From Escherichia phage vB_EcoS-Ro145clw: 42,031 bases of DNA. Location: sequence record MG852086.2; one strand, written 5' to 3'. The notes beneath the pieces are model-generated. The model saw only the letters and a list, made by a program, of their open reading frames with translations, searched no databases and was not told where the DNA came from. The translations under genes were made by a program, and so were the position numbers. Shown piece by piece: positions 2,287-28,786 of this stretch (its first letter is position 1; every line of letters starts with the position of its first letter).

Positions 2287-2289
2287 TTC

Positions 2290-2802
2290 ATGCCGCTAAT
2301 CGTGGAAGATGGGTCGATAGTACCTGACGCTGACAGTTACGTTAGCCTGGCTGATGCCCGCGCGTTAGCGGCTAATTATGGCTTTGAGCTGCCGGAAGAC
2401 GATACCGCAGCAGAGGTGGCCTTGCGCAACGGCGCTACTTATGTCGGGCTTGCAGAACCGCAGATGTGCGGTCGTCGTGTATCCGCAGAGCAGTCTCTTG
2501 CGTACCCCCGCACCGGCGTTACGTTAAACGGATTCCCTGTAGCGAACAATGTCATTCCGAAGCAGGTAATTCTTGCGCAGGTAATCGCCGCTGTTACGTA
2601 TGGTGTAGGTACGGAAGTGCGAGCTAACTCTGATGGGCGTTCCGTGCAGACTGAGCGCGTAGAAGGCGCAGTGACCGTGACATACTTCAACAACGGCAAC
2701 AGTGGCGCTACGACCGCAATTACCGCCGCGGACGATGCCTTACGCCCGTTACTGTGTGGCGGACTTAACAATGGCTTCTCCTTTAACGTGTACCGGGGTT
2801 AA
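2290..2802 (+). CDS. head-tail connector/adaptor protein (gp6-like, putative)
   Basis: 170 aa; SD GGAGGA; N-terminal SYVSLADARAL...EDD pattern resembles HK97 gp6-type adaptor N-termini; position in head-completion block. Confidence 0.45.
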   Translation: MPLIVEDGSIVPDADSYVSLADARALAANYGFELPEDDTAAEVALRNGATYVGLAEPQMCGRRVSAEQSLAYPRTGVTLNGFPVANNVIPKQVILAQVIAAVTYGVGTEVRANSDGRSVQTERVEGAVTVTYFNNGNSGATTAITAADDALRPLLCGGLNNGFSFNVYRG

Positions 2803-2804
2803 AA

Positions 2805-3419
2805 ATGGCGAAGACTAAAACAGAGATGTTTACCCTTATAGGCGCTAATCTTCCAGATAACACCGACAAACTTATCACCCCCGCAGCATTGCGCGAGGTA
2901 ATGACGCAGATGGCCGACTCGCCTATTTACGCCACTCCGGGTGTTAAAGAGGTAGAAGTTCTCCGTGCCGCGTCAACCGTGGCACAAGCGCCTACCGCAG
3001 TAGATACGGCATTGCAGTTAACTTTCGGCTCCGCTCAGGGGAGTGCATCTGACCCGGTAATGATTAATGCTGCGGGGCTGGTTACGTTCAACACCGCAGG
3101 TAACTACGCCGTTCGCATCAAGTTACAGGCCGGGCGCACCGGGGCCAGCGGTACATCTATCCTGCTATCGCGCATCCTCGTCAACGGCGCTCAATACGGT
3201 TCCCCCGCAGCAACTAAGCTGGTAAGCGCCGACATAACAATTCCTATTGAGTCCCGCGTTGTTATTGGCCCAACCGCAGGCCAGACGTTTGCCGTTCAGA
3301 TTATGCGGGATAGCGCCGGGAGTAACTTCGGCGGCGTATATCCGCAAGCGGCTACGGTAACTGCATGGGGTACAGCACCATCTGCGCTACTGGTTATCTC
3401 GAGACTGGAGGCTGCCTGA
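2805..3419 (+). CDS. hypothetical structural protein
   Basis: 204 aa ORF in the head-tail joining block; no recognisable motif. Confidence 0.45.
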   Translation: MAKTKTEMFTLIGANLPDNTDKLITPAALREVMTQMADSPIYATPGVKEVEVLRAASTVAQAPTAVDTALQLTFGSAQGSASDPVMINAAGLVTFNTAGNYAVRIKLQAGRTGASGTSILLSRILVNGAQYGSPAATKLVSADITIPIESRVVIGPTAGQTFAVQIMRDSAGSNFGGVYPQAATVTAWGTAPSALLVISRLEAA

Positions 3420-3778
3420 TGAGCACCGATTTCAGTAAACGTATGCAAGGCGTAGGTACGCGCCTGCTAACCAAATTCGGTAGCACGGTATCTCTGGTTC
3501 GCGCTGGCTCGAAAGTGTGGGACGAAGTTCTCGGCGAATACGTCTGGTCTGCGGATGAAGTGTTGCCGTTGAAGGCCGTTCCGGTTCCTGTTAACGCAGG
3601 ACTGGTAAACGGTACGACGATTCAGGCAGGTGACATGATCGTTAAGGCTGATTACAGCGTCGTTCCGAAGATGGAAGACAAGGTGCAATTTGGCGGCGAG
3701 CAATGGTCTATCGAAGCCATTGAGAAGAAGATGGTTAATGATGATGTCGTGGCCTACTTTATCCAGGTGAGAAAATGA
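3419..3778 (+). CDS. head closure / head-tail joining protein (putative)
   Basis: Start moved to ATG at 3419 overlapping upstream stop (TGATG); about 119 aa; size and position fit a head-closure protein. Confidence 0.4.
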   Translation: MSTDFSKRMQGVGTRLLTKFGSTVSLVRAGSKVWDEVLGEYVWSADEVLPLKAVPVPVNAGLVNGTTIQAGDMIVKADYSVVPKMEDKVQFGGEQWSIEAIEKKMVNDDVVAYFIQVRK

Positions 3779-4173
3779 CACCATTTGAACAGTCTATTCA
3801 GAATTTTATAAAGAAGGCCAAAAAGAACCCTGAACTGGTGGTTCGCCAGGTCACGATTAAATTATATTCTCAGATTATAATGGCAAGTCCCGTTAAGACG
3901 GGTAGATTCAGGATGAATTGGCAGGTCAGTAATAACAAGCCAGCAACGGGTGTTTTAATAGCAGACGACCCTTCCGGGAGCAGAGCTATAGGTCGGATGA
4001 CAAATTACGTTATATCATCTCCTGAGTGGGAAAATTTCTGTTTTACAAATAATTTGCCATATGCGGAAAGGTTAGAATATGGGTACTCACAACAAGCACC
4101 TCAAGGCATGGTCCGTGTGACTGTCGCCAGATTTCAACGTCTACTCAACGAAGCTGCGGCGAGGGCAGATTGA
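3775..4173 (+). CDS. HK97 gp10-like neck/tail-completion protein
   Basis: 132 aa; ATGA overlap with upstream gene; motifs PVKTGRFRMNW and NLPYAERLEYG resemble the HK97 gp10 family; markedly AT-rich with rare AGA/AGG/ATA codons. Confidence 0.5.
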   Translation: MTPFEQSIQNFIKKAKKNPELVVRQVTIKLYSQIIMASPVKTGRFRMNWQVSNNKPATGVLIADDPSGSRAIGRMTNYVISSPEWENFCFTNNLPYAERLEYGYSQQAPQGMVRVTVARFQRLLNEAAARAD

Positions 4174-4586
4174 TGGGCTACTTTGAGGACTTAACCAAAG
4201 CGTTTGATGTGCCGTTGGTGGCCTTCGGGACCGCAAACGGCATCAGGGTTGCGCTTGAAAATATCGACGCGCCGACGTCAACCGATACGCCGTATCTGGC
4301 GAGTTACATGTTGCTGGCAGATACGGAACAGGCGGATTTGTTCTTCACCGAGCAACGCTCAGGTGTTTATCAGGTCAACATTAACTACGCGTCGGTGAAA
4401 GGTAGCGCGCCAATCAATAAAATGGCAGACTTACTTAACACGGTGTTTAAAGCAGGTAAGTCATTTTCACGTAACGACATCTGCGCCGAGGTTCAATCAG
4501 TTAGCCTGGGGCCGCTGATTGTAGAAAACGGATGGGCCAAAAGACCATTGTCAATTAACTTTATTGCATTCACCAAGAGGCTGTGA
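4173..4586 (+). CDS. tail terminator/completion protein (putative)
   Basis: 137 aa; start ATG 4173 overlapping upstream stop; SD GAGGG; positional call immediately before major tail gene. Confidence 0.4.
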   Translation: MGYFEDLTKAFDVPLVAFGTANGIRVALENIDAPTSTDTPYLASYMLLADTEQADLFFTEQRSGVYQVNINYASVKGSAPINKMADLLNTVFKAGKSFSRNDICAEVQSVSLGPLIVENGWAKRPLSINFIAFTKRL

Positions 4587-4588
4587 AT

Positions 4589-5755
4589 ATGGCTACAACT
4601 CCTTTTAAGGGCGCGAATACCGCGCAATTCTATGTGGCGGAAGTGACCCCGGGCGTAACACCAAGTAACCCGGTATGGTCGCCGTTGCGTAGCACTGGCG
4701 GCGTTCCTGCCGTAACCCGCGATGCGCTGACTTCCAACGAACTGGACGGCAGCCGTGAAACTACATCCATCCGCACTGGCAATAAGCAGGTAAGCGGGGA
4801 GTATGCCATCGAACTTAGCTCTCGTAGTCAGGATGATTTCCTGGCTGGCGCGATGACTTCTACGTGGCAGGATGGGGTAGAGATTACGGGTGCCGAAATT
4901 ACTGTCGCCCCCGCAGGTAAAACATTCACCCGCGCTGCCGGTAGCTTCATTACTGACGGTGTAGAAGTTGGTGACCTTATTGCGTTCACCGACTTAACCG
5001 GCGACAACGCAAAACCGTTTATCGTGACCGCGGTTTCTGCTCTTGTAGTTACGGGTGCGGGCATTCAGCACACGCTGACAGCAGAGACTGTAACCACCGA
5101 CGCTAAAACTGGCGATAAACTGGAAACCGGTAACGCATGTAAGACGTTCTCCATCCTGACATGGTTCAAAGGACAGTGCGGGAACCCTGACGCGTACATG
5201 TTGACCAAAGGCGTGGAAATCTCCGGTTTCACCATTGAACAGGCCGTAAACGCGATGGTGACAGGCAGCTTCCCGTTCATCGGCCTGAGTCAGGAGATTC
5301 TTACCACGCCGCCGTCTGGCTCTGATTTCTCTCAGGTGACGTTCACGGACGAGCCGTTCTCTTCTGTAGATGTGTCTGTGTTCGACGGTTCTACGCCGTT
5401 GCGTTGCGATACTCTCACTATCACCAACGATAACGGTGCTTCCGCGCAGTTCGAACTCGGCAACAGTAGCGTCGCGTTCGTGGAACGGGGGCGCGCAGCT
5501 AACACCTTTTCCATCTCCGGTAAGCTGTACGACATGACGATGATTCAGAAGTTTATCAACGAGCAGCAGGTAGAGATTAACTCTATTCTGGCGGGGGTAA
5601 ACGGGGCTATGTCTTTCAGTTTGAAACGTGCGGAACTTACGGCGGTTACGCCTGAGATTGGCGGACCTGAGTCAATCACCCAGAGCATAGAAGGACAGTC
5701 CACAGGCAATCAATATCAATCTTCTATTGTAATACAGCGTATTAGCTACGCGTAA
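4589..5755 (+). CDS. major tail (tube) protein (putative)
   Basis: 388 aa from ATG 4589 with SD AAGAGG 8 nt upstream; Thr/Ser/Gly-rich; position between completion proteins and chaperones. Confidence 0.55.
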   Translation: MATTPFKGANTAQFYVAEVTPGVTPSNPVWSPLRSTGGVPAVTRDALTSNELDGSRETTSIRTGNKQVSGEYAIELSSRSQDDFLAGAMTSTWQDGVEITGAEITVAPAGKTFTRAAGSFITDGVEVGDLIAFTDLTGDNAKPFIVTAVSALVVTGAGIQHTLTAETVTTDAKTGDKLETGNACKTFSILTWFKGQCGNPDAYMLTKGVEISGFTIEQAVNAMVTGSFPFIGLSQEILTTPPSGSDFSQVTFTDEPFSSVDVSVFDGSTPLRCDTLTITNDNGASAQFELGNSSVAFVERGRAANTFSISGKLYDMTMIQKFINEQQVEINSILAGVNGAMSFSLKRAELTAVTPEIGGPESITQSIEGQSTGNQYQSSIVIQRISYA

Positions 5756-5759
5756 GTAA

Positions 5760-5779
5760 AAGGCCCCGAAAGGGGCCTT
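5760..5779 (-). terminator. GC hairpin AAGGCCCC GAAA GGGGCCTT, terminator oriented for the minus strand
   Basis: Perfect 8 bp stem; A-run on plus strand just before it gives a U-tract on the minus strand after HNH gene 5781..6275. Confidence 0.5.
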
Positions 5780-5780
5780 A

Positions 5781-6275
5781 CTATTTACCGTGGTTCTCGT
5801 GGAACCCCAAATCTCTTTCAGCAACTCTCCTCGCGGCAACTGCATCTAGTATCGTCTTAAAGCACCCGATATGTGTTTTTACGTTATTGTTGAATATCTG
5901 CGCGTACCACAACCTTTCTTTCGCGTTCCAGTAGACTCCGGTTACTCCTGATTTATTATTACGCTGTTTTGACATATTTTTATGGTTTTCCGCATTGGAC
6001 TTTTTAGCTAAGTTAAGCGGTCTATTGTTTATTCGGTCATGGTCTAGATGGTCTATTTGATCTGACGAGGTTAGCTTATTGTTAGGATTGTTTAAGTCCC
6101 AAGCTATACGGTGCGCCGCATGCCATTTACCCCGGAAAAATATCCTTCTATATCCGTCTCGCTGGACGGTACCTGCTTCCTCTCCAGCCTTAGCCCTCCC
6201 GGACCGGGTTACTCTGTTAAATATCCTTCCTGAAATTAAGTCGTATATGAAAAATTCATTCCAATCCATAATCAT
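5781..6275 (-). CDS. HNH homing endonuclease with AP2-type DNA-binding domain
   Basis: 164 aa; HNH core GKWHAAHRIAWDL...IDHLDHDRINNRPLNL; AP2-like SGVTGVYWNAKERLWYAQI; AT-rich; SD AGGAG. Confidence 0.8.
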   Translation of the reverse strand: MIMDWNEFFIYDLISGRIFNRVTRSGRAKAGEEAGTVQRDGYRRIFFRGKWHAAHRIAWDLNNPNNKLTSSDQIDHLDHDRINNRPLNLAKKSNAENHKNMSKQRNNKSGVTGVYWNAKERLWYAQIFNNNVKTHIGCFKTILDAVAARRVAERDLGFHENHGK

Positions 6276-6288
6276 CTCCTATTGTGAT

Positions 6289-6311
6289 AAGGCCCCGAAA
6301 GGGGCCTTTTT
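6289..6311 (+). terminator. second copy of the identical hairpin AAGGCCCCGAAAGGGGCCTT followed by T5 (plus-oriented terminator)
   Basis: 20/20 identity with 5760..5779; followed by TTTTT on the plus strand. Confidence 0.5.
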
Positions 6312-6312
6312 C

Positions 6313-6543
6313 TTACTCATCAATATTACTCCTGTACTCCCGTAACTTCTCCAGACTCTCAATTGCTTCCGCTAAGTCGGTTCCTGTGTCCTTGTGCCCC
6401 CGCAAGCCCATACACAATAGCTTCTTCAATGCGTGCTGTAACGCCGGGTCGCGGATGTCGAAGGCACGTAGCACGTCGTAAACGTCTACTGTCATAGTGC
6501 TGCCGTGAGTGTTTGTCATTGTGCGGTTGTATTTTGAAGTCAT
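6313..6543 (-). CDS. hypothetical protein (76 aa)
   Basis: SD GGGGAG upstream on the minus strand; preferred over the overlapping 6359..6550 frame. Confidence 0.4.
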   Translation of the reverse strand: MTSKYNRTMTNTHGSTMTVDVYDVLRAFDIRDPALQHALKKLLCMGLRGHKDTGTDLAEAIESLEKLREYRSNIDE

Positions 6544-6556
6544 AAATCAATCTCCC

Positions 6557-7027
6557 CTACTCATGGTTTTCATGAAAACCGTATTTACTCTCGGCGGCTT
6601 TACGCGCGGCAACCGCTACATCAAAATCGTCGTAAAGCCCTAAATGCACTTGTTTGTAGTTAACTTTTATAAACGCGCGCCACTTACCCGCGGCTTTGTG
6701 GAAACTTACACCTGTAGCCCCGGATTTATTTATCTTTCTCATAGTTTTATTTTTACTGTCCCCTGTATTGTCGGTGGCGCGTAGATTTTCTATTCTATTG
6801 TCTAGCCTGTTATGGTTTATGTGGTCTATTTGAGTTTTCCTGTCTAAGTCGCATTTATTATAAAGACACCATGCTATGCGGTGGACATACACTGTTTTAC
6901 CACCCATACCGCAGCACAGATAGCCTCTTACACCAACCGTACCAACCTCAGCACCAGTAGATATCCTGGTAACCTGCCCCGTCTCAGGGCAGTATTTAAA
7001 TTGTTTTGAAACATCAAGATACTTCAT
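6557..7027 (-). CDS. HNH homing endonuclease with AP2-type DNA-binding domain (paralog of 5781..6275)
   Basis: 156 aa; HNH core HRIAWCLYN...IDHINHNRLDNRIENL; AP2-like SGATGVSFHKAAGKWRAFI; shares C-terminal GFHENH with the other HNH. Confidence 0.8.
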   Translation of the reverse strand: MKYLDVSKQFKYCPETGQVTRISTGAEVGTVGVRGYLCCGMGGKTVYVHRIAWCLYNKCDLDRKTQIDHINHNRLDNRIENLRATDNTGDSKNKTMRKINKSGATGVSFHKAAGKWRAFIKVNYKQVHLGLYDDFDVAVAARKAAESKYGFHENHE

Positions 7028-9336: not shown

Positions 9337-11599
9337 TATCGCTAGCTTGATAGTACGAGTATCCGCAACCGGCGTCGATAAAGTCACATCACAACTGAAC
9401 GGGCTTACTAAAGCCGCAGGCGCTGCGGCTGCCGCCGTTGTCAGCCTGGAAACCGCTAAGCAGGTGTTCAGTGCGCTGGTGGACTCCCAGCGAAACTTCG
9501 ATAAGCTGAACTCCGGCCTCATCACAATGACCGGGAGTGCTGAGAACGCGGCTAAGGCTTTCAGCGTCCTGCAACAGTTCGCGAAAGAAACCCCGTACGG
9601 CCTCAACCAGGCGGTGGAAGGCTTTACTAAACTTGTAGCCCTCGGCCTGAACCCCAGCAAAGAGGCGTTAATCTCCTACGGCAACACCGCCGCTGCGATG
9701 GGTAAAGACCTTAATCAGATGATTGAGGCCGTGGCGGACGCCAGTACATTTGAATTTGAGCGACTGAAAGAGTTCGGTATTAAGTCTTCCCAACAGGCAG
9801 ATACCGTTTCGTTCACGTTCCGCGGCGTAACGACCACAGTTAAGAAGAACTCCGAAGAAATTCAGAAATACCTGCTAAACATCGGTAACACTGATTTCGC
9901 CGGGGCGATGGAAACGCGTTCGAAAACCCTTGACGGGCAGTTATCTAGCCTCGCGGACTCCTTTGACGGCCTTGTACTTGCGGTGGCGCAATCAGGTTTC
10001 GGCGACGCCGTAGGTGAGCAAGCTGCGACAGCGGAAGATGCCATCACGGCCCTAACCGATGCCATCGCGTCTAATGAGATAGCAGCCACGCTCCAGGATT
10101 GGGTGACACTGTTCAATGAATCGTTCAAGTTTATTTCTGACGCTTTGAACGATCTGGCATACGACACCGAGGACAAATCCGTGGATATGTCCGACTCGCT
10201 GGGGACTATCCCGGACGCTATTCGTGAGTGGTTGCCTGACATTCAGCAGACATTCCACGAGGTTATTGCGTGGTTCCAGCGCATTGACGATTACGCGGTC
10301 GCGTTAGGCCAGACCCTCGCCGACGTGTTCGACCCGAGCAAAACGGCAGCGCTAACATTTAAAAACCTGACCGCAGAGGCCGACGCCGCATACGCCGCCA
10401 GCATAAAACGCGCAGAGGCCGAATCACAGGCTATCACCAACAGGTCTAAGCAGCGTAAGAAAGAAATTGAGGAACAGCGCAAGCAGTATGACGAGCGCAA
10501 GAAGCAAGAAATTGACTTAGCCAGCCTTGTTAATAAAAAGAGCGGAAATGGTGGAACCGGAAATACCAACGACAAAGACGCGAAAGCCGCCGCTAAGAAA
10601 GCGGAGCAATTGCGTAAACAGGCCCAGGATTATCTCGACACTTTGGCCCGTCAGAACAACGACGAATTAAAGGCTATTGACGCACAGGAACAGCAGAAAC
10701 TGGCTAAGGCAAAAGAGTTCTACAACCAGGGCGCGTTGGCTCTGAAAGAATACGAGCAAGCAAAAACGGCTATCGTCCTCGAAGCCGGACAAGCACGGCA
10801 GGAAGAGCTGGATAAGCGAGAGAAAGAACGGCAGGAAAAGCAGCAGAAAGGTGAAGACTTCATGGCTCAGATTATGGGTCAGAATGCCGCCGAGCTTGAG
10901 CTTCTGGAAATTCAGGAACAACAAAAACTGGACGTTGCGGACCGATACCGCGAACAGAACCTTATTAATGAGGAGCAGTACCAGGCTGCGGTTAATGCCA
11001 TAAATGACCAATATGCTTTGAAGCGCGCCAACGCTACAGGTAACGCTTTCGGGATGATGGCGGATAACATGAAGGCCTCACTAGGGGAGGCGTCGTCCGC
11101 GTACAAAGCATTCGCTATTGCTCAGGCCACAATCGCCACATACACCTCCGCTATTGAGGCTTATAAATCAGCGTCCGCTATCCCCGTGATTGGCTGGGTT
11201 ATGGGGCCAATTGCCGCCGCCGCCGCCGTAGCCGCCGGTATGGCTAACATAGGTAAGATTCGTTCGGCTCGTGAACAGGGTGGTCAATTATCCGCGGGCC
11301 AGATGTCCACCATCGCTGAACGCGGTAAACCGGAGGTTATCATGCCTGCGGGGGCATCGCGTGTGCGCACCGCGCAGCAGATGAAAGAGATTATGGGGCA
11401 AAACGGCGGAAACTCCGGCGGTGACAGCGTGACAATTGTCAACAACACCACCGGGCGAGTTGATTCTGCGGTAACAGAACGTGATGACGAAGGGCGTTTA
11501 CGTATTATAATCAGTGAAACAGTATCGGCGGCGTTACAGGACAGCAACAGCGCAATCTCTAAGTCACGCCGTGCTACACGAAACCAGCCGGGGTATTAA
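9329..11599 (+). CDS. tail tape measure protein
   Basis: 756 aa from ATG 9329 (SD GAAGG); long coiled-coil middle with repeated EQQKL segments; C-terminal hydrophobic Ala/Gly-rich segment; follows chaperone pair. Confidence 0.8.
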   Translation: MADIASLIVRVSATGVDKVTSQLNGLTKAAGAAAAAVVSLETAKQVFSALVDSQRNFDKLNSGLITMTGSAENAAKAFSVLQQFAKETPYGLNQAVEGFTKLVALGLNPSKEALISYGNTAAAMGKDLNQMIEAVADASTFEFERLKEFGIKSSQQADTVSFTFRGVTTTVKKNSEEIQKYLLNIGNTDFAGAMETRSKTLDGQLSSLADSFDGLVLAVAQSGFGDAVGEQAATAEDAITALTDAIASNEIAATLQDWVTLFNESFKFISDALNDLAYDTEDKSVDMSDSLGTIPDAIREWLPDIQQTFHEVIAWFQRIDDYAVALGQTLADVFDPSKTAALTFKNLTAEADAAYAASIKRAEAESQAITNRSKQRKKEIEEQRKQYDERKKQEIDLASLVNKKSGNGGTGNTNDKDAKAAAKKAEQLRKQAQDYLDTLARQNNDELKAIDAQEQQKLAKAKEFYNQGALALKEYEQAKTAIVLEAGQARQEELDKREKERQEKQQKGEDFMAQIMGQNAAELELLEIQEQQKLDVADRYREQNLINEEQYQAAVNAINDQYALKRANATGNAFGMMADNMKASLGEASSAYKAFAIAQATIATYTSAIEAYKSASAIPVIGWVMGPIAAAAAVAAGMANIGKIRSAREQGGQLSAGQMSTIAERGKPEVIMPAGASRVRTAQQMKEIMGQNGGNSGGDSVTIVNNTTGRVDSAVTERDDEGRLRIIISETVSAALQDSNSAISKSRRATRNQPGY

Positions 11600-19651: not shown

Positions 19652-19842
19652 TTTGCCACCAGTACCAGTTCTTTACGCCCAAACGCCGTAACATTGCCCG
19701 TCACATCTTCGATAACCAGTTTACCGTTCGACTCGACGAACACAGTATCAACGGCAACAGGCCGGCGTGTCTTAACGTTGAAAATCATGTCGCCAGGTAC
19801 GATGTCGCGTGCCGGTTTGCGGTCATATTCGTATTTATTCAT
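19648..19842 (-). CDS. hypothetical protein (64 aa)
   Basis: ORF in minus-strand operon; no motif. Confidence 0.4.
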   Translation of the reverse strand: MNKYEYDRKPARDIVPGDMIFNVKTRRPVAVDTVFVESNGKLVIEDVTGNVTAFGRKELVLVAK

Positions 19843-20045
19843 TATTCGTCTTCCTCTGTGCAGTAGTTTTCTAGTACATAATTCAGTGCGTTACGTTTTG
19901 CCTCGTCTATACATATGCACAGTCGGTCAAATTCAAGATCATCTAAAACAGATTCAGCGCCAACTAATCCCTCCAATGCGGTTACAATGTCGCCATCATA
20001 TTTTTCGTACATGTACTTAACGATGTGCGGGTCTAACTTTCTCAT
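19842..20045 (-). CDS. hypothetical protein (67 aa), acidic C-terminus
   Basis: ORF in minus-strand operon; no motif. Confidence 0.4.
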   Translation of the reverse strand: MRKLDPHIVKYMYEKYDGDIVTALEGLVGAESVLDDLEFDRLCICIDEAKRNALNYVLENYCTEEDE

Positions 20046-20737: not shown

Positions 20738-22915
20738 TCACTTAGCGTACCGGTACATTTCGCTGCCTTCTGCTACAAGAGGGAATCCCTCAGCCCATTC
20801 AGGTAATTCGCACATCAATCGTTCGAGTTCAGCCACATTGTATTCAGGCGAATCTGGCGTCTCGCAGATAATTTCATCGTGTACATGAAGTACAATCGGG
20901 TAGCCGTTTGCTTCAACGTTAAGTAGCGCATTAGCCAGCAAGTCACGGCACAGTGCCTGGGTACAGTTTTCCACCAGTTTCCCGGAGTACGTGTACTGGA
21001 AGCCCCACTGACGAGTTAACTGGTTTTCACCTTGGTACTTGATGCGCACGTTAGTAGAAACTTTCCCGTCTTCGTCCGTCTCTTTCGATACACTTAAACC
21101 TACGCCAGGGTAGGACATTACGCGGCCTGACGGCAACGTCATGCGCAACCACCAACCAGCTACCTTGTTGCCGTTGTTATCTGTTTCTACGTTGCGTGAA
21201 AACTTAACGCCACGAGGACCAGCGGTGAACTCTTTCCCTGGATTACGTATTGCCGCCATAGCTGCGTCTTCGATATCACGCCAGAAAGCTACAGTCTCAG
21301 GGTGCGACTCGCGCCACATGCGCTTGATAGCGTCACATGTACGCCAGACTTTCTTATCCAGAATATATGATGGTCGGTCATCTTTTTCACCAGGACGCGG
21401 TGGCCGCTTGGCTTCCTGAATACGCGCCCACTCGTACCCACGTGCGGTAGCGGCCCAGATGTGGTCAGGGAAAGTACCGTCCATTGTTTTAGCCATATCA
21501 ACCAGGTCAAGGCCGAGGTTCTTGGCGAACTGAACGAAAGCCCCTACGCCGCCAGCGTAGCCGAGTCCCAACTCGCAAGCTTTGCCTATCTGGCGAAGGT
21601 CTTTACGTTCTTTCTTAATGTAATCCGGTTCCAGGCCAAACATCTTGCCCGCCGTTACGCAATAAATATCCAGCCCGGCCCGGAAAGTATCGAGCGCGGC
21701 TTCTTCGCCCGCCAGCCATGCCAGCCCGCGACCTTCAACGTTAGAGTAATCTGCAACAACAAACTTGTGCCCTGCTTCCGGGATAATGCAGCTGCGCACC
21801 GTAGATGCCGTTAGCTTGGCTACATCAAACCGACGATGCGCACGTCCTTTCAGCAACGCAGAAATCCCTTTATCCAGCTCATCGTCATGATAGTACCCGC
21901 GGGCCAGGTTCTGTGGCTGGAAGCCTTTACCGGCGAATCGTAGCGTACGTTTAGCCCCGCCGTACTGGATGCAACCGCGGCGGCGGTCGTCAGAAGAACG
22001 ACCCAGCAATAACGGTGTGTATTTCGTTGACGCGGTGGACGCCGCTCCGAGGCGCATTTCGACAATATCACGGGCATCGTCGGGTAAATCCTCGTCAGCC
22101 AGCAGGTCAAACAACGTTGCTTTTTGCGCGTTATGAATGCGGTTCGCAGGGGCCAGTTCCTGCAATGCCGGTAGAAAGTCTTTTCCGGTTAATGAACAGC
22201 CGAATTTACGTTGAGATTCCTCCTGCAACTCCCCCTTATGCCGTGTTATGGCTTCAATAGCGGCTTCTGCCAGCGCAATATCAACCTTGAACCCGCGGTC
22301 GTTGATTAACTGGTCCAGTTCCAGTACGCGGTCCTCGAACTCAGAGTTGCCCCACGACGGCATTTTTTGAAACACTTCACGCATCGAAGTGATATCACTA
22401 ATAGCGTACTTGATGAATAACGCCCACTCCTCCGGGTGCGTCTCAGACGTATAGCGGCGTATTTTGTAATTCTTCGGGGTCGGCTTGGTGAATCTCTTTA
22501 TTAACGCCTTACCGCGTTTGTCCTTGGCGTTCTCTGCAGATACTTCCAGCACTTCACACAAAACAGCCAATTTCCCCGGCAGCGCGTGGCGAAAAGCACA
22601 GGTCATTGTATCTATAACGCTGCTTACAGGTATGTCATAGCCCCAGCAGTTGCGGATAACTAAGCGGTCAAACATATTGAAGTTATGACCTACAATCTTA
22701 ATATCCCCTCTCATTGCCTTACGCAGGCCAACTTTCAGGTCGCGCGGCATATCGCTGCCGTCTGTGCAGTCCCAGCAACGCACCTCGCCGTCGTCGAACG
22801 CGTAGGTGCATATCAGAATTTCTGTAGATGGGTGTTCGGCGTAGGCATAACTGCCGACAACCGTTATGTCTAATTCACAAAAAGTTTCTGTATCAAGATA
22901 AAGTAATTCGTTCAT
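20738..22915 (-). CDS. family A DNA polymerase with N-terminal 3'-5' exonuclease domain
   Basis: 725 aa; exo motifs YLDTETF and VGHNFNMFD; pol motif A ADYSNVEGRGLAWLAGEE, motif B RQIGKACELGLGYAGG, motif C VLHVHDEIICE. Confidence 0.85.
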   Translation of the reverse strand: MNELLYLDTETFCELDITVVGSYAYAEHPSTEILICTYAFDDGEVRCWDCTDGSDMPRDLKVGLRKAMRGDIKIVGHNFNMFDRLVIRNCWGYDIPVSSVIDTMTCAFRHALPGKLAVLCEVLEVSAENAKDKRGKALIKRFTKPTPKNYKIRRYTSETHPEEWALFIKYAISDITSMREVFQKMPSWGNSEFEDRVLELDQLINDRGFKVDIALAEAAIEAITRHKGELQEESQRKFGCSLTGKDFLPALQELAPANRIHNAQKATLFDLLADEDLPDDARDIVEMRLGAASTASTKYTPLLLGRSSDDRRRGCIQYGGAKRTLRFAGKGFQPQNLARGYYHDDELDKGISALLKGRAHRRFDVAKLTASTVRSCIIPEAGHKFVVADYSNVEGRGLAWLAGEEAALDTFRAGLDIYCVTAGKMFGLEPDYIKKERKDLRQIGKACELGLGYAGGVGAFVQFAKNLGLDLVDMAKTMDGTFPDHIWAATARGYEWARIQEAKRPPRPGEKDDRPSYILDKKVWRTCDAIKRMWRESHPETVAFWRDIEDAAMAAIRNPGKEFTAGPRGVKFSRNVETDNNGNKVAGWWLRMTLPSGRVMSYPGVGLSVSKETDEDGKVSTNVRIKYQGENQLTRQWGFQYTYSGKLVENCTQALCRDLLANALLNVEANGYPIVLHVHDEIICETPDSPEYNVAELERLMCELPEWAEGFPLVAEGSEMYRYAK

Positions 22916-22973: not shown

Positions 22974-23603
22974 TTAACCACGGCGACGACGTTCTCGGCG
23001 CGGTGCTTCATCTTCTTCGTCGTCTTCAAGGTCATTGACGCTCGCAGCAACTTTAGAGCCTCCAAACGCTTTACCTTCGCCGACGTATTTAATCGCCAGC
23101 AGGTTAACGCCGAGGACTTTGTATTTCTGGCTGAACCAGATTTCAACGCTTACGTTAGCAACGCAGCCGCTGTAAACCTGTTCGCCTTCAATCTGTTCAC
23201 CGTCTACGTTGAAGTCCTGCTCTACCTGAGTCTCACCTTTTTTAGAGGTTACAATCAGCGGTTGTTTCTGTGCCTTCGCTTTGAAGTAGAAACCTTCCGG
23301 GAAGTCTTCAAAAGGATTATCACGCTCGGCAATGTCTTTAATCGCGCATTTATCCATGTGCTTGCCTTCGCCGTAGTTTGACTTCATCCACTTCTCGGCA
23401 GCGGCGGCACCAAGTGCTTCTTCTACAACCGCATAAACGGTGTCGTACATTTCGTCGATTTGCGCATGGTCAGACGGCAGGATGATAGTCGCGCTGTACT
23501 GGCCTTTAGTGATTGAGCCATCATCGTTTTCACGGTCTTTTTCGCGTTCGAATACGTTAACCCATGCAGTGTTTACTTTACGCAGATTTAATTTCATTCC
23601 CAT
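22974..23603 (-). CDS. SSB-like protein (gp2.5/DUF2815-type, putative) with acidic then Arg-rich C-terminus
   Basis: 209 aa; sits between Cas4-like exonuclease and DNA polymerase as in known phage replication modules; DLEDDEEDE tail. Confidence 0.4.
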   Translation of the reverse strand: MGMKLNLRKVNTAWVNVFEREKDRENDDGSITKGQYSATIILPSDHAQIDEMYDTVYAVVEEALGAAAAEKWMKSNYGEGKHMDKCAIKDIAERDNPFEDFPEGFYFKAKAQKQPLIVTSKKGETQVEQDFNVDGEQIEGEQVYSGCVANVSVEIWFSQKYKVLGVNLLAIKYVGEGKAFGGSKVAASVNDLEDDEEDEAPRRERRRRG

Positions 23604-23689: not shown

Positions 23690-23845
23690 TTATTTAAACG
23701 TTTCTTTTGTCATACGGATAATTTTCGCCGATTCGTCCCTAATTATCATGCTGAATACCTGGTATATGACTTTGCTCCTGCCTAGCTTCGCTCCGTTTCG
23801 ATGCTGTTGTATGTAGCTTTTATGCAATTCTTGAATCGTACTCAT
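23690..23845 (-). CDS. small hypothetical protein (51 aa)
   Basis: ATG 23845 overlaps exonuclease stop (ATGA) with SD GGGGGA; ends 4 nt before promoter site E. Confidence 0.35.
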   Translation of the reverse strand: MSTIQELHKSYIQQHRNGAKLGRSKVIYQVFSMIIRDESAKIIRMTKETFK

Positions 23846-25083
23846 TCCAAATCCCCCTCTGTTACTTGATTCCACTCAGGCCGTTTATCGTCTGCCGTTG
23901 CAACGCATGGTGCTCCTGGCTTACGAGTAATGAAGTCTTTCAGTTCTTCTTCCGGCACAACTTTAACAGCTTCGGTTGGCGTCATGAGCACTTGCTTCAT
24001 TAGCGCGATGCCGTATTTGCTTGCCACTTTCTCCGCGTCTTTCCACGCGCGATTACCCGGACGACCTTCTACCAGCTTGTAACCCGGCACTTTCTTGCCA
24101 GAATGCAAAGCGGCAGCCATAGCTTTCTCAACCTTGTCGATGTGCTGGCGCAACAACGGCAACTTCTCATACTCGGCGACGAGTTGCTCAGGTGTCAGTT
24201 CCAGTGCAAAATCGTCCTCCAGTTCTTCCGCCAGCACCGCGTTAACGGTTTTTGTACGCGCTGCGCACTGTTCTGAGAACCGACACCACTGGCAACCATC
24301 GACCGACGGCTTGAAGTCCGACGCTTTCAGGTTCTTCTTTCCACGGAAATAGGCATCAAGGGCCCGCAGCGCTCGTTTCCGTGCGAACTTAGCGAACAGT
24401 TCCAGACCTTCAACCGAGATGTCCCACTCCGACGCGCCACCAGCATACGGCTGGAAGATGACCAGGCGAACTACTGTGATGTTATAACGTCTCTTGAGTC
24501 GGCGATAAACACCGAGAGCGTAAAGCATAAGCTGCTTGTTTTCTTTCGCTTCAACACGATGCCGTCCTGTTTTCAGGTCGCCTATAATGAGCATGTGCCC
24601 ATCGGTGTTAGACAGCTCCTGAACGGCAACGAGGTCAGCAGTTCCGAACGTCTCAACGCCTTCATAGCCCGGATGCAATACCTCAGTAAGATTGACGCGC
24701 ATTTCCAGCTTGGCGTAAGTGGCAACGTCGATAATCGCTTTGCAGTAGTCTGTGTACTTGCGCACCTGTTCAATCATGTCAGCCGTAATCAGTACCGCAC
24801 CTTTCATCGGGCTGATTAGTGCCTTAATCTGACCTTTACCCTCATCCAGCACGTAAGCACCGACTTCACGCTCCAACGGCAGCGCAGTGCCTTTGATGTA
24901 CTGGTTTAGATGTACCTCAGCTATTGTGTGCATAGCTGTGCCTAATACCGCAGATTTACCTGACGTGTTAGGGATATCTTTTTCACAGGCCAGCGATGCG
25001 GCGCAGCTTAACCACTTTTTGGCACCTGACGGCGACAGTAAGGCGTGCACATCGTTATTGCCGCCGCGTTCTTTTAAAATCAT
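23842..25083 (-). CDS. PD-(D/E)XK exonuclease with Cas4-like Cys cluster (DUF2800-like)
   Basis: 413 aa from ATG 25083 (SD GGGAGGT); N-terminal Cys plus CQWCRFSEQC; nuclease core GTADLVA...IIGDLKTG...EAKENKQLMLYA. Confidence 0.7.
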   Translation of the reverse strand: MILKERGGNNDVHALLSPSGAKKWLSCAASLACEKDIPNTSGKSAVLGTAMHTIAEVHLNQYIKGTALPLEREVGAYVLDEGKGQIKALISPMKGAVLITADMIEQVRKYTDYCKAIIDVATYAKLEMRVNLTEVLHPGYEGVETFGTADLVAVQELSNTDGHMLIIGDLKTGRHRVEAKENKQLMLYALGVYRRLKRRYNITVVRLVIFQPYAGGASEWDISVEGLELFAKFARKRALRALDAYFRGKKNLKASDFKPSVDGCQWCRFSEQCAARTKTVNAVLAEELEDDFALELTPEQLVAEYEKLPLLRQHIDKVEKAMAAALHSGKKVPGYKLVEGRPGNRAWKDAEKVASKYGIALMKQVLMTPTEAVKVVPEEELKDFITRKPGAPCVATADDKRPEWNQVTEGDLE

Positions 25084-25351
25084 TCCGTACCTCCCACTGG
25101 TCAATTAAATGCCGCGTCTGGTGCTGGCAGTGCATAGCCCACCCATACATCGACTCGAAGACATAAAAGTCAGGTTTGGCGAAGGTCGTTCGCTTAATCT
25201 GCGACACGCGGCGACCTATATCTTTAGGGCGCGGTACTTTGCCTAAGTACGCCATCTCTTCCATCCGGTGCGCACCTGACGGCGCACGCAACAGCCACAA
25301 CGCCTCTGTGTTATCCCGCCTGTCGATGGCGCGGTAGAGTTGGTAAATCAT
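25055..25351 (-). CDS. hypothetical protein (98 aa)
   Basis: SD GAGGT 9 nt upstream; overlaps exonuclease start by about 29 nt. Confidence 0.4.
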   Translation of the reverse strand: MIYQLYRAIDRRDNTEALWLLRAPSGAHRMEEMAYLGKVPRPKDIGRRVSQIKRTTFAKPDFYVFESMYGWAMHCQHQTRHLIDQWEVRNDFKRTRRQ

Positions 25352-25371
25352 AATTCCGAACCTCAGTTAAA

Positions 25372-25387
25372 GCGGCCCGAAGGCCGC
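25372..25387 (-). terminator. weak hairpin GCGGCC CGAA GGCCGC (possible attenuator)
   Basis: Perfect 6 bp stem; only a short U-run on the minus strand. Confidence 0.3.
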
Positions 25388-25394
25388 AGGATAG

Positions 25395-25895
25395 TTATTC
25401 TTCTTCGAAATATTTGTTCTTGATTGCCGTCAGGCGTTCCAGATATTCAGCCAAGTCTTCGTCTTTAATCGCCGCAATCTTCATCTTCTTACCTGTGAAC
25501 TCTTCCAGCAGTTCATCGGAATCGTCGCACGCGGCATCGCTCGGACCTTCATTAATTGCATCGTCGATGGCCTGAATCTGGTCACGCAGAGACTGGTAAT
25601 CGACTTCTTCCTTCCCTTCTTCCGGCTCTGGCTCTGGCTGCTCTACTTTAGCTTTACGCGGCTTGCGTTTTGGCTTCTCTTCTTCTGCTGATTTAGTGTC
25701 GACGATGTCTTCACCTTCGACCGGGATTTCTTTTGTTGCTTCTTTTGCGCACTCGTCTACCGCTTCTTTGGTATACATTACCGTCTCTACTTCTAGTGGC
25801 GCGGCAACCCGAACAACTTGTTTCGCGCTGTTCGCAGCAATCAGTTCATGTGCAACTACGAAACGTTCCAGTAATTTTAAGAATTGGTCTAACAT
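25395..25895 (-). CDS. highly acidic early protein (function unknown; DNA-mimic candidate)
   Basis: 166 aa very rich in Glu/Asp with Pro-Glu repeats (EQPEPEPEEGKEE); first gene downstream of promoter site F. Confidence 0.5.
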   Translation of the reverse strand: MLDQFLKLLERFVVAHELIAANSAKQVVRVAAPLEVETVMYTKEAVDECAKEATKEIPVEGEDIVDTKSAEEEKPKRKPRKAKVEQPEPEPEEGKEEVDYQSLRDQIQAIDDAINEGPSDAACDDSDELLEEFTGKKMKIAAIKDEDLAEYLERLTAIKNKYFEEE

Positions 25896-25926
25896 TTGTT
25901 TCTCTCCTCTCGTTTGGTATGGGCTA

Positions 25927-25956
25927 ACTATAATAGCTGACTATTCATGATGTCAA
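25927..25956 (-). promoter_or_regulatory. sigma70-like promoter TTGACA-N18-TATAGT containing AATAG-N4-CTATT (site F)
   Basis: Minus strand reads TTGACATCATGAATAGTCAGCTATTATAGT; divergent from the XRE gene. Confidence 0.5.
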
Positions 25957-25976
25957 TGGGCTTTTCTAAAATAATT

Positions 25977-25990
25977 AATATGGTACTATT
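25977..25990 (+). promoter_or_regulatory. operator-like AATAT-GGTA-CTATT overlapping a TGgTACTAT extended -10 (site G) upstream of XRE gene
   Basis: One mismatch from the AATAG-N4-CTATT consensus; weak -35; about 30 nt upstream of ATG 26021. Confidence 0.35.
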
Positions 25991-26020
25991 CACATATCAA
26001 CTGACTAAGGAGTGATTAAC

Positions 26021-26236
26021 ATGCAACCATCTGAACTAGGCATCCGTGTAGAACAGCGCCGTAAAGAACTCGGCATCTCCCAGCGCCGTCTGGCTGTCCT
26101 GACGGGAGTTTCTCAGGGCGCAATTAATCAGCTTGCACTCGGAGTAACTCAGGACGTCCGCCCGGCAACGCTGTTTAAACTGGCGGAAGTGCTGGAAGTA
26201 GACGCCAAGTGGCTGGCGTTAGGTGAAGGGGCTTAA
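26021..26236 (+). CDS. XRE-family (Cro/CI-type) HTH transcriptional regulator
   Basis: 71 aa from ATG 26021 with SD AAGGAG; ELGISQRRLAVLTGVSQGAINQLALG is a textbook HTH_XRE motif. Confidence 0.75.
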   Translation: MQPSELGIRVEQRRKELGISQRRLAVLTGVSQGAINQLALGVTQDVRPATLFKLAEVLEVDAKWLALGEGA

Positions 26237-26250
26237 TGCCCCTTTCTTTT
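26226..26250 (+). terminator. intrinsic terminator after XRE gene
   Basis: AAGGGGC TTAAT GCCCCTT followed by TCTTTTT; stop codon lies in the loop. Confidence 0.6.
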
Positions 26251-26253
26251 TAC

Positions 26254-28494
26254 CTATTCCAAATCTTCCTCTGTAACTTTCAGCATCTCATTCGGTTCGT
26301 ATATTGTCTTCGGCCTTAATCTGTCACCTATCTTTTCGGGTATCCGGTATGTGCCGGGGGCAACTTCACCGTTAACATCACACCCGAGCATCAACTCACC
26401 GTCTTTCAGCATCTTCTCAAGATGGTGGTTGGTGATGGCGTGGTCCCCCGAGTTCGCCACTATCTGCCGTTGGGTAAAACCTCGTCCGGTGTCGTCGGAC
26501 TGTTGCAGGTCTTCCAGCGCGGCGAGTATTGATTCCTTACGCCCTTCATCCTTCCCGCGTTTTACAGCATTCTTTACGTTTTCTTTACCTTCCTTTGTCA
26601 GCCCTTCTTCCCGCTCTTTCTCCTCGTCAGTTTTGAATGGCTCGAAGCCCCACGGCATCAACACAAGCGCCTTGTGTGGTTCCGGCAGGTCGAGGTTTAC
26701 GATTGTGCCGTATTCCTCCGTGCTGCCCAGGAACTCCACCGCGCGGTACTCTTTCGGCGGTGGCGCTTCACGGAACTGTACCGACTCCAGCACCATACCA
26801 ACCGTCTTCTGTTGAGGCCCGTGCTTAAATTTAGAGTGGTATACGTTTATCTGACGGTCGGTTGCGCGTTCAATTGTCAGCTCCACGTCGACACCCGCAT
26901 ACAGCGCCCCACTGCCACGGGCTTTCTTTCCACCCTTCGGGGTATGGTGAACAACGCCCACCGCAGCTTTGGTTGCGTCGCGTACTTCTTTCAGGATGGC
27001 AATGACTTTACCCATGCCGATTGCCGTCGATGAACTGTTCTCGTCGAACTTATCAATCGTCAGGGCCAGGGTCTGGTTGAGGGTATCGAACGCGACCATC
27101 CCAATTGGCTCGTCACCCGCGGTTTCGCGCATCAACTTAATCAGGCTTTTCAGTTTTCCGACTTCACCCATGTCGATGACATGTACATAATCTTTACCTT
27201 CCTCGCCATATTTAGCCGCGAGTGCGTCGATGCGTGTGCGTGTAGCAGCACCACCCTCACCGTCGATATAGAAATGGTGGCAACGCTGGGTATCTGCCCC
27301 TGCAAACCGGTATCCGGCGGCGCTAAGGTACATCATCCCCAGCGTATAGAACGATTTGTACGTGCCAGATTCCCCGACGATATCCCAGATACAATCCGAC
27401 GGCATGTACCCTTCAACGACGAAATCAGCCTTTACCGGTTCCGGTAACTCGTCCTCCTCTGGATCCTCGTCGTCTTCCAGGTCGTCCAGGCTGCATGAAA
27501 CATATTCACGTGCACCCCATCCGATGGCCTCTGCAACTTCACTGAACGGCAGCCCGGTCGCATCGCACGCGTATTTCCACACATCTTTCGGTGGCATGCC
27601 TTCTGTCGCCGCAATGTCGGTGTCGTGAATCATGGTTACGTTCGGCGCTTCGTACCCTTCACGTGGGAAACACAGCAGGAAGTCGTCCGGGCGTGGCGTC
27701 GGGTCGCTGTAGTTTTCTGCGTGTTCTGGTGTGGCAGGCATCTTAAGGCCGCGAGGCGTCATGATGCCGCCGTACTCAAACGCCAGCGATTCAAACGCAT
27801 CTGTAAACGCGGTGCGCAGTTCTTCCGGAATCTGGTAGTCAGATGCGCTGCTTACCTCGTAATCCGGGATGCCTTCCAGTAACTCGTCAGGGTCAATCAG
27901 GTCATTGCGGCGCGCCCAGATAACGGTAGAGCCGACCGGCGGCAGGTACATAGGCTGAGACAGAGTGAACCCGCTGCGGTCGGCACCCATGCCTTTGAAG
28001 AAGTGCTCCAGCAATCCGTGACGAACGCGGATGATGTCACCACCTTCAACCGGACGCCCCAGCGGCATGACGACGCGAAAGCGCGGTGACTCATCGGTAT
28101 GTGATGCCGTAGTGTAAAGGCACATAGCCTGACGGCTGCGCTTAACCAGGCACACCACTTCCTGATACTCTTCCGGCGTTGCGCTGTCGAAGTCCAGGTA
28201 CGCCAGCGACGATTTACTTACAGACGCGTCACAGCGATAAAAGAAGCCTTTGCGCGCTTGCTTAAAGTCACCGGTTTCCGGGTCTTTTACGGTGCTGTGC
28301 GTAGCGTCGCACGCGGCAGTAACATAGCCAGGTGCTGTCTTCGGGTTAATTCCGTCGCGAACGGAATCGAGTGGACGGATTAACTCTTTCAGGTCGTCCA
28401 GTGTTGCCGTGTGTGTTGTTCTGACGTTTATATCCTTTTTCTCCGCCCGCGCGTTGCGACGAGACCACGAGTAGGATAAGATTGCATCGGACAT
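26254..28494 (-). CDS. primase-helicase-like replication protein (N-terminal primase-like region plus RecA/AAA_25-like ATPase)
   Basis: 746 aa; SD GAAGGAAA; P-loop IVGESGTYKS and Walker-B-like MVAFDTLNQ; Lys/Glu-rich linker; C-terminal tail ...VTEEDLE. Confidence 0.65.
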   Translation of the reverse strand: MSDAILSYSWSRRNARAEKKDINVRTTHTATLDDLKELIRPLDSVRDGINPKTAPGYVTAACDATHSTVKDPETGDFKQARKGFFYRCDASVSKSSLAYLDFDSATPEEYQEVVCLVKRSRQAMCLYTTASHTDESPRFRVVMPLGRPVEGGDIIRVRHGLLEHFFKGMGADRSGFTLSQPMYLPPVGSTVIWARRNDLIDPDELLEGIPDYEVSSASDYQIPEELRTAFTDAFESLAFEYGGIMTPRGLKMPATPEHAENYSDPTPRPDDFLLCFPREGYEAPNVTMIHDTDIAATEGMPPKDVWKYACDATGLPFSEVAEAIGWGAREYVSCSLDDLEDDEDPEEDELPEPVKADFVVEGYMPSDCIWDIVGESGTYKSFYTLGMMYLSAAGYRFAGADTQRCHHFYIDGEGGAATRTRIDALAAKYGEEGKDYVHVIDMGEVGKLKSLIKLMRETAGDEPIGMVAFDTLNQTLALTIDKFDENSSSTAIGMGKVIAILKEVRDATKAAVGVVHHTPKGGKKARGSGALYAGVDVELTIERATDRQINVYHSKFKHGPQQKTVGMVLESVQFREAPPPKEYRAVEFLGSTEEYGTIVNLDLPEPHKALVLMPWGFEPFKTDEEKEREEGLTKEGKENVKNAVKRGKDEGRKESILAALEDLQQSDDTGRGFTQRQIVANSGDHAITNHHLEKMLKDGELMLGCDVNGEVAPGTYRIPEKIGDRLRPKTIYEPNEMLKVTEEDLE

Positions 28495-28552
28495 GTTGTG
28501 TTTCCTTCAGCAAGTAATTTGGCCTCGGCGTTCACCGCGTCGGGGCTTTCTT

Positions 28553-28786
28553 TTATTCCAGGTCTTCTAAAGTAGCGGTCATTCCGCGAACTTCTGCAAC
28601 AGCGCTATATTTCCCGCCAACGTTTTTTACGACACCGGATTTAACCAGCACGCGTAACGACGCTTCAATAATGGCGGAACTATAGTACTTAAAATAACTG
28701 CGGCGCAAGTCAAGAACACTACACGACCCTTTTTTACGTGTAAGCGAAACTACCGCCGTAAATACTCGTGACTGGAACTCTGTCAT
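28553..28786 (-). CDS. hypothetical protein (77 aa) ending in LEDLE
   Basis: ORF coupled to upstream AlpA-like gene; shares the C-terminal DLE tail with primase and exonuclease. Confidence 0.4.
   Translation of the reverse strand: MTEFQSRVFTAVVSLTRKKGSCSVLDLRRSYFKYYSSAIIEASLRVLVKSGVVKNVGGKYSAVAEVRGMTATLEDLE

Follow-up and report, generated by a model that had tools for sequence, protein, structure and literature searches.

Why should proteins of a phage replication block that belong to unrelated folds carry the same short acidic peptide? The question is raised by a 42,031-nucleotide stretch of DNA from Escherichia phage vB_EcoS-Ro145clw (record MG852086.2; the whole stretch is called the window here), in which an exonuclease, a primase-helicase and a protein of 77 amino acids (aa) end in ..NQVTEGDLE*, ..LKVTEEDLE* and ..TATLEDLE*, respectively. 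A sequence-only reading had taken these tails for a docking motif shared by replication proteins. Our analysis bears out a selected peptide on unrelated replication proteins and adds two copies that had been missed, one in the protein that binds single-stranded DNA (SSB) and one in an internal linker of the primase-helicase; that the motif binds anything, and what it binds, we infer. The three open reading frames (ORFs) lie on the minus strand, end as had been claimed, and are all annotated genes (gp63, gp67 and gp68). Gene names gp54-gp68 follow the annotation of NC_073322 (vB_EcoS-Ro145c2YLVW; Kagunavirus, Guernseyvirinae), which is 100% identical in this region. The four carriers are as follows.

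23842-25083, minus strand: DUF2800 / PD-(D/E)XK exonuclease gp63 (annotated ATG at 25083; 413 aa)
26254-28494, minus strand: primase-helicase gp67 (Pfam AAA_25; PHROG 3228 'replicative helicase-primase')
28553-28786, minus strand: 77-aa winged-helix protein gp68, whose gene lies immediately upstream of gp67
22974-23603, minus strand: gp2.5-like SSB / annealing protein gp61 (PF10991; PHROG 112)

Since the SSB tail and the primase-helicase linker also carry the motif, there are at least five copies in four proteins:

23845..23865, minus strand: exonuclease tail VTEGDLE; its stop codon TGA (23842-23844) overlaps the ATG of the next gene (GAATGA)
26257..26277, minus strand: primase-helicase tail VTEEDLE, followed by a terminator-like hairpin and by no coupled gene
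27463..27492, minus strand: primase-helicase linker copy SLDDLEDDED (residues 335-344), in the acidic linker that joins the N-terminal primase part to the AAA_25 helicase part
23007..23042, minus strand: SSB copy SVNDLEDDEEDE, at the start of the disordered SSB tail and followed by a basic end, APRRERRRRG
28556..28579, minus strand: 77-aa protein tail TATLEDLE, the C-terminus of gp68

Read more fully, the SSB tail opens ..ASVNDLEDDEEDE and the primase-helicase linker reads ..CSLDDLEDDEDPEED; the linker copy is nearly identical to the SSB tail motif. The motif recurs in four unrelated folds.

The tail shared by the three proteins is non-trivial and not due to chance. In the six-frame translation of the window, 'DLE*' occurs exactly three times, and all three occurrences are the ends of these genes. 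The probability that at least 3 of the 71 annotated proteins would end in DLE is 1.6-1.9e-6; for any tripeptide ending at least 3 of the 71, it is 0.004-0.006 analytically and 0.0053 by simulation. The broader pattern [DEGN]DLE has six occurrences in the proteome where 1.0 +/- 1.0 would be expected; all but one of them are the motif sites in the replication block.

The sequence-only reading had named loss of the motif from homologues in related phages as a refutation. Homologues keep it in related and in distant phages, with the copies changing in parallel. For the exonuclease, 120 clusters of close relatives (94-100% identical) were sampled, which speaks to conservation within the genus only. 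The tail consensus is V-[TS]-E-E-D-L-E, with the consensus residue present at positions -7, -5, -4, -3, -2 and -1 in 96-100% of clusters; Leu is invariant (120/120), Asp nearly so (118/120), and each of the two Glu is found in 117-119 of the 120. The Gly at position -4 of the window exonuclease (23854-23856; TEGDLE) is exceptional, this residue being Glu in 117/120 close relatives. With Glu at -4, the exonuclease tail would equal the primase-helicase tail, VTEEDLE.

The other carriers tell a similar story. Sought among 1.84 billion representative proteins (library clustered at 50% identity), the primase-helicase family proved to be small, with 18 matches at E <= 1e-30. D-L lies within the last 8 residues of 11 of 13 full-length representatives and of all three C-terminal fragments, and the linker copy, which Guernseyvirinae and Dhillonvirus keep as C-x-[DE]-x-D-L-x-[DN]-[DE], is readable in 13/13 full-length representatives. 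The SSB copy is conserved in the same two groups as ..ATD-x-DL-[DG]-DD... In DUF2815, the family to which the SSB belongs, a set of 120 diverse proteins has a tail of the form ..AEDDFDxL..DDDD[FL]L, and the Kagunavirus D-L-E aligns with its ..AEDDFDxL.. part. The 77-aa protein has a narrow family, whose 35 clusters (a 42-aa fragment included) come from Kaguna- and Jerseyviruses. Its tail is kept in all 34 full-length representatives (71-97% identical), as EDLE in 31, EELE in 2 and EDLA in 1.

The decisive result is that the tails of the exonuclease and the primase-helicase change in parallel within one genome. Kaguna- and Jerseyviruses have TE-x-DLE, SE1-like phages DL[AES]N and DL[EA][ND], and Dhillonviruses ATD-x-DLK[ND], as the following pairs illustrate.

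SETP3 (Jerseyvirus): exonuclease ..ITEDDLE, primase-helicase ..TTEGDLE
Locus L015: exonuclease ..VSDSDLE, primase-helicase ..AADEDLE
SE1: exonuclease ..ATDNDLAN, primase-helicase ..SEEEDLEN
Locus L019: exonuclease ..VSDDDLSN, primase-helicase ..AEDDDLAD
HK578 and other Dhillonviruses: exonuclease ..ATDEDLKN or ..DLSNE, primase-helicase ..ATDDDLKD

The HK578 exonuclease is merely 45% identical to that of the window, yet its tail is parallel nonetheless. The effect was quantified with 80 IMG/VR loci containing DUF2800 homologues, reduced to 24 lineages at 50% exonuclease identity. In each locus the exonuclease, SSB, primase-helicase, polymerase and SNF2 helicase (gp54 in the window) were located by local hidden Markov models, and tails were then shuffled among lineages (18-24 lineages per pair; 5000 permutations for exonuclease versus SSB). 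All three pairs of motif carriers gave higher similarity scores for tails of the same genome than for tails of different genomes:

Exonuclease versus primase-helicase tails: own-genome 14.4, cross-genome 11.2, p = 0.0006
Exonuclease versus SSB tails: own-genome 19.3, cross-genome 16.1, reached in 0 of 5000 permutations
Primase-helicase versus SSB tails: own-genome 15.8, cross-genome 13.7, p = 0.014 (18 lineages)

The two negative controls showed no significant signal: exonuclease versus polymerase tails gave 9.6 own-genome and 10.3 cross-genome (p = 0.93), and exonuclease versus SNF2 helicase tails 10.6 and 9.8 (p = 0.11).

The copies are located in disordered segments. The exonuclease, previously described as Cas4-like, is more exactly a DUF2800 protein (Pfam, E = 1e-67) that also matches PDDEXK_1 and belongs to PHROG 69 ('exonuclease'). 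Its tail comes after an invariant D-x-R-P and is outside the domain, because the DUF2800 match ends at residue 409 of the 420-aa ORF. That ORF, a mechanical one spanning 23842-25104, begins at a TTG and includes an extra stretch (25084-25104); the ATG at 25083 (MILKERGG..) is the start in GenBank and in every homologue. In the primase-helicase, where AAA_25 (residues 352-522) is the sole Pfam match at E <= 0.01 and residues 87-215 give weak matches to primase families in PHROG, the segment preceding the C-terminal tail is rich in indels.

The SSB matches PF10991 (E = 5e-16), PHROG 112 ('Gp2.5-like', E = 4e-42) and PDB chains 5ODJ (Enc34 ORF6) and 4JG2 (a Bacillus cereus phage-related protein), the two chains at E = 7.6e-4 and 6.7e-3. 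AlphaFold2 folds an OB-type core (residues 1-178) and leaves the tail (182-209) mostly below a predicted local distance difference test score (pLDDT) of 50, with residues 187-192 and 196 alone at 50 or above. In the Kagunavirus SSB the motif is followed by a strongly basic stretch (APRRERRRRG, 22977-23006), and Dhillonvirus SSBs (L005, L016-L018) have two to three alternating acidic (D/E-rich) and basic (PRK/R-rich) blocks; such a blocky charge pattern is unusual among gp2.5-type SSBs, which are normally acidic at the end.

For the 77-aa protein, AlphaFold2 (mean pLDDT 84) gave an H-H-H-beta-beta winged-helix fold over residues 1-63, with residues 67-77 below pLDDT 50. The Foldseek matches are winged-helix domains (T4 MotA activation domain, LexA N-terminal domain, RPA32C), none of them at E <= 0.001. 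A possible origin of this protein as a duplicate of the primase-helicase C-terminal region was set aside, hhalign giving a probability of 5% over 12 columns, which does not show homology. Overall, the motif has the properties by which short linear motifs are recognized: a conserved [ST]-[DE]-x-D-L island, variable indel-rich flanks, disorder and recurrence in unrelated proteins.

What might such a peptide do? Most probably, [ST]-[DE]-x-D-L-[E/K/A..] is a short linear docking motif for a common receptor of the phage replisome. The copies, sitting on disordered ends and linkers of replication and recombination proteins, would all bind, and compete for, one receptor surface, envisaged as a hydrophobic pocket for the Leu ringed by basic residues. 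Tethering to one hub would bring together the four carriers (exonuclease, helicase-primase, winged-helix protein and SSB/annealing protein) and permit hand-off between them.

Several proteins could provide the receptor surface. By analogy with T7, the family A polymerase is a possible receptor:

20738-22915, minus strand: family A DNA polymerase gp60 (Pfam DNA_pol_A), candidate receptor

An equally likely receptor would be the helicase or some other protein of phage or host. Only slightly less likely is the groove of the OB domain in the gp2.5-like SSB, a candidate suggested by analogy with crystal contacts. The sequence-only reading had named the SSB-like protein as a potential partner; the SSB itself carries the motif (SVNDLEDDEEDE), so if it is the receptor, the docking site must be the folded OB domain and not the tail. 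That phages of one host species have different tail versions mildly favors a phage-encoded receptor. The polymerase has no DLE-type tail and ends ..EMYRYAK. Mapping of the T7 gp5 basic patch (K587-R591) onto it by profile comparison returned a spurious 68-column match (probability 1%) and was dropped. Module genomes without a phage polymerase would help to choose between polymerase and SSB; in loci L032 and L084, what stands in the place of the polymerase are ORFs that match no Pfam family and may encode divergent polymerases.

Several observations weigh against a common docking motif. The final Glu is absent from 5 of the 120 exonuclease clusters (..TEEDL), and from the exonuclease of locus L013 too, where the codon at this position reads TAA; the last residue is therefore dispensable in some relatives. 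The own-genome signal is uneven, with several lineages lacking a shared tail (e.g. L051 and L038), and the VirE-type primases of APSE or LP.1 lack it. Because the last residues of exonuclease and primase-helicase differ in some genomes (KN/KD, AN/EN), the match between the two is not exact. The AlphaFold2 monomer of the SSB shows a small rise in pLDDT at the motif, which is no evidence of docking. Finally, some of the similarity is compositional, since proteins that bind DNA commonly have acidic tails.

The same arrangement recurs, in other sequence, in distant phages. Staphylococcus phage 2638A (L008/L101) has ..SSAEDDFDELDTDDDD.. in the SSB, ..SSAVDDFDEINTDDDD.. in the linker, ..DDFNDLI at the primase-helicase end and ..EEDFDQI at the exonuclease end. 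Its linker segment SSAVDDFDEINTDDDD (residues about 355-375) almost copies the SSB tail SSAEDDFDELDTDDDDLL; the two-site layout is like that of the window, although the host of 2638A is Gram-positive. A common ending, [DE][DE][DE]V, is found on five proteins of Klebsiella phage Seifer and its Enc34-like relatives (L007, L091-L100), namely the primase, the exonuclease (DUF2800), the SSB (DUF2815), a protein of 130 aa encoded upstream of the exonuclease, and the terminase small subunit (..RFAEEEDDEV). One example is given here.

L099 (Seifer/Enc34-like): [DE][DE][DE]V carriers at 933-3554, 4030-4422, 4832-6181, 6228-6848 and 10810-11379

The presence of this ending on the small terminase means that the shared-tail principle may extend beyond replication into packaging. 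Scanning IMG/VR with the exonucleases of Seifer and 2638A gave few loci, most of them near-identical, which confirm those two tail types. The SNF2 helicase of Seifer/Enc34-like phages ends ..WDDEDD. In one metagenomic lineage, the SSBs (L026-L028, L031, L035, L036, L040, L042, L043 and L047) are not acidic at the end and read ..NP[IL]TG[LM]P[MY], and their exonucleases end ..EAFKEEN. This looks like a different tail system, perhaps one imitating a host SSB tip.

A wider generalization can be drawn from these data, though we consider it unlikely. The motif would be a lineage-specific address tag, rewritten in each lineage (T-E-x-DLE, ATD-x-DLK[DN], DDF[DN]x[LI], [DE][DE][DE]V) and marking all proteins that join a single phage-built hub, in effect a general code for client recruitment. 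The clients would be the SSB, the exonuclease, the primase-helicase (twice) and the winged-helix protein, joined in Enc34/Seifer-like phages by the small terminase. The hub would be a factory for replication, recombination and packaging, possibly scaffolded by the blocky acidic/basic SSB end. If true, this would reach beyond a helicase-polymerase contact and across a widespread phage module.

Could the tails instead act without any common partner? Each acidic tail might work in cis only, as a DNA mimic that folds back onto the DNA-binding surface of its own protein and so adjusts affinity or specificity for DNA. This has been described for the tails of T7 gp2.5, T4 gp32 and Enc34 ORF6: the gp2.5 tail competes with single-stranded DNA for its own cleft, and removal of the Enc34 ORF6 tail alters discrimination between single- and double-stranded DNA (PMC5686142 and references therein). 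All carriers in the window handle DNA, in line with such a role. Yet a cis mimic needs negative charge only. It leaves unexplained the [ST]-[DE]-x-D-L register shared across unrelated folds, the joint change between lineages of the residues after the Leu, and the invariance of that Leu in 120/120 exonucleases. We judge a purely cis role distinctly unlikely.

Alternatively, the receptor could belong to the host, the tails imitating a host interaction peptide (e.g. the C-terminal tip of bacterial SSB) and so recruiting or blocking host replication or repair factors. The DUF2815 tail (..AEDDFDxL..DDDD[FL]L) is loosely like the acidic-hydrophobic bacterial tip, and the metagenomic SSB ends ..NP[IL]TG[LM]P[MY] point the same way. 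But the Kagunavirus motif has no I/L-P-F tip, and tail versions differ between phages of one host: DLE in Kagunavirus versus DLK[DN] in Dhillonvirus on E. coli, and DLE in Jerseyvirus versus DL[AE]N in SE1 on Salmonella. These differences fit a co-evolving phage-encoded receptor better, and mimicry of a host peptide is very unlikely.

A third alternative is that the peptide is a by-product of a DNA or RNA element, such as a Shine-Dalgarno or translational-coupling sequence, a terminator-proximal signal or a recent gene conversion between the ends of the two genes. The sequence-only reading had noted near-identity over about 22 nucleotides at the ends of the exonuclease (GTA ACA GAG GGG GAT TTG GAA T) and primase-helicase (GTT ACA GAG GAA GAT TTG GAA T) genes. 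This is real, at 19/22 positions, although slightly misquoted, the exonuclease segment beginning GTA and not GTT. The exonuclease stop does overlap the next ATG (GAATGA), and the GAGGGGG upstream could act as a ribosome-binding site. But the overlap is present in Kaguna- and Jerseyviruses only; exonuclease genes of SE1-like phages and Dhillonviruses are uncoupled and still keep the tail, no coupled gene follows the primase-helicase or 77-aa gene, and the 77-aa gene uses different codons (GAA GAC CTG GAA). Moreover, relatives show many synonymous changes at the conserved residues, with six codons in use for Leu (TTG, TTA, CTA, CTC, CTG, CTT), two each for Asp (GAT, GAC) and Glu (GAA, GAG), and four for Thr (ACA, ACC, ACG, ACT). 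Because relatives keep the residues with different codons, the tail similarity is not at the DNA level and the 22-nucleotide identity is incidental. Selection acts on the protein, and an origin in a nucleic acid element is highly improbable. Chance resemblance among acidic low-complexity ends, which are frequent in this proteome (e.g. ..TEEDE and ..KYFEEE), is scarcely credible given P = 2e-6 for DLE (0.005 when any tripeptide is allowed), the conservation and co-variation across lineages, and the negative controls.

The replication/recombination block is on the minus strand, with transcription running toward decreasing window coordinates. Its order is a helix-turn-helix protein, gp68 and gp67, then a repressor gene on the plus strand, and after it gp65, gp64, gp63, a 51-aa gene, gp61 and gp60 (minus strand). 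The exonuclease, a small gene, the SSB and the polymerase, consecutive on the minus strand, constitute the duf2800-gp2.5-polA module, a known phage gene module (Steczkiewicz et al. 2021, PMC8093625). Two further genes of the window deserve mention.

25395-25895: gp65 (PHROG 3127; 166 aa), encoded upstream of the exonuclease
19842-20045: gp56, a 67-aa early protein

The sole [DEGN]DLE outside the five motif sites lies within gp56 (..VLDDLEFDRL..), which has an acidic end (..NYCTEEDE). The end of gp65 is conserved and aromatic-acidic: ..NKYFEEE in the window, while SE1-like phages have ..KYYEIEE and Dhillonvirus ..TYFELED. At the gp65 position in Seifer, the protein (004) bears ..EEDDV, the common tail, in place of such an end. 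Some relatives have replication genes interrupted by homing elements, and several Jerseyviruses have HNH genes inserted beside the exonuclease. In SETP3 (L002; 9394-12492 and 13690 onwards), the polymerase has 1032 aa versus 725 aa here, and the SNF2 helicase is annotated as intein-containing.

The module is very widespread, occurring in Guernseyvirinae, Dhillonvirus, Casjensviridae, APSE, many Staphylococcus and Streptococcus phages and many metagenomic viruses. A shared, co-varying peptide offers a concrete and cheap handle on how the module proteins assemble. A docking motif would predict which proteins meet at one site, assign a role to a 77-aa protein of unknown function, and suggest that the replisome physically includes the recombination exonuclease. 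The tail peptides might serve as probes or inhibitors. If the docking reading is true, the T7 acidic-tail principle would be extended from two proteins to a multi-client code, whose rules could be read from natural co-variation, as receptor residues that change when DLE becomes DLKD, DDEV or DFDxI.

How does this motif compare with known systems? The paper on the duf2800-gp2.5-polA module (PMC8093625) describes the gene neighborhood, and we found in it no mention of a peptide common to the module proteins. Literature searches on DUF2800/DUF2815 and on the Guernseyvirinae helicase-primase and exonuclease likewise found no description of the shared tail, which is not proof of novelty. In clamp-binding and PIP-box systems, unrelated replication enzymes share a short, often C-terminal, peptide for docking and exchange on one hub. 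The logic is the same here, but the tails do not fit QL[SD]LF or Q-x-x-[LIM]-x-x-F-[FY]; no clamp is named among the 71 annotated genes, although no search aimed at clamps was made. The C-terminal tip of E. coli SSB, ..DFDDDIPF, is a second parallel. It too is an acidic-hydrophobic peptide on a disordered tail (C-peptide, PMC3936761), and it recruits many genome-maintenance proteins. There one carrier meets many receptors, whereas here many carriers bear one peptide, which implies one receptor. The window SSB also differs in belonging to PF10991 and ending ..RRERRRRG, and none of the carriers has an I/L-P-F tip.

Structural work on DUF2815 proteins is closer. These are structural relatives of T7 gp2.5 with disordered acidic tails, which in crystals sit in a concave beta-sheet groove of the neighboring molecule; the gp2.5 tail is likewise found in the groove of neighboring SSB molecules (PMC5686142). 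Since the tails of Enc34 ORF6 (PDB 5ODJ) and 4JG2 occupy a neighbor's groove, the SSB core is a plausible receptor for proteins with an SSB-like tail. The Enc34 ORF6/4JG2 work covers SSB-SSB contacts and DNA discrimination only, not a peptide on the exonuclease or primase.

The closest parallel is T7 (gp2.5 ..DEDGDF, gp4 ..SNDTDF), a direct precedent for the analogy to other phage replisomes drawn in the sequence-only reading. The T7 proteins end ..EADEDGDF (gp2.5) and ..DWSNDTDF (gp4), and the gp6 exonuclease has no such end. In T7, the gp2.5 and gp4 tails are interchangeable, and suppressors of a gp2.5 without its terminal Phe mapped to gene 5. Both tails are reported to contact basic patches on the polymerase (PMC8472574, PMC12339929), the gp2.5 tail using the front basic patch (PMC12339929), and removal of the gp4 tail lowers processivity threefold (PMC8472574). 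The gp2.5 tail is also needed for stimulation of gp6, a result reported as data not shown (PMC4124056). The window shares with T7 an SSB of the same fold family, a family A polymerase, and an SSB and a helicase-primase with a similar acidic peptide that has one key hydrophobic residue and lies on a disordered end. It differs in the position of that residue, Leu at -2 here versus a terminal Phe in T7 (..GDF, ..TDF), so that the terminal aromatic residue is lacking, although distant relatives such as 2638A do have D-F-[DN]-x-[LI]. The SSB copy is internal here and followed by the basic end ..PRRERRRRG, the primase part differs from that of gp4 (Pfam finds no DnaB (SF4) or Toprim match in the window primase-helicase), and there are additional carriers: the PD-(D/E)XK exonuclease, the small winged-helix protein and the primase-helicase linker. 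By this analogy, the window is best read as a variant of the T7 acidic-tail system, with the same principle and another residue pattern.

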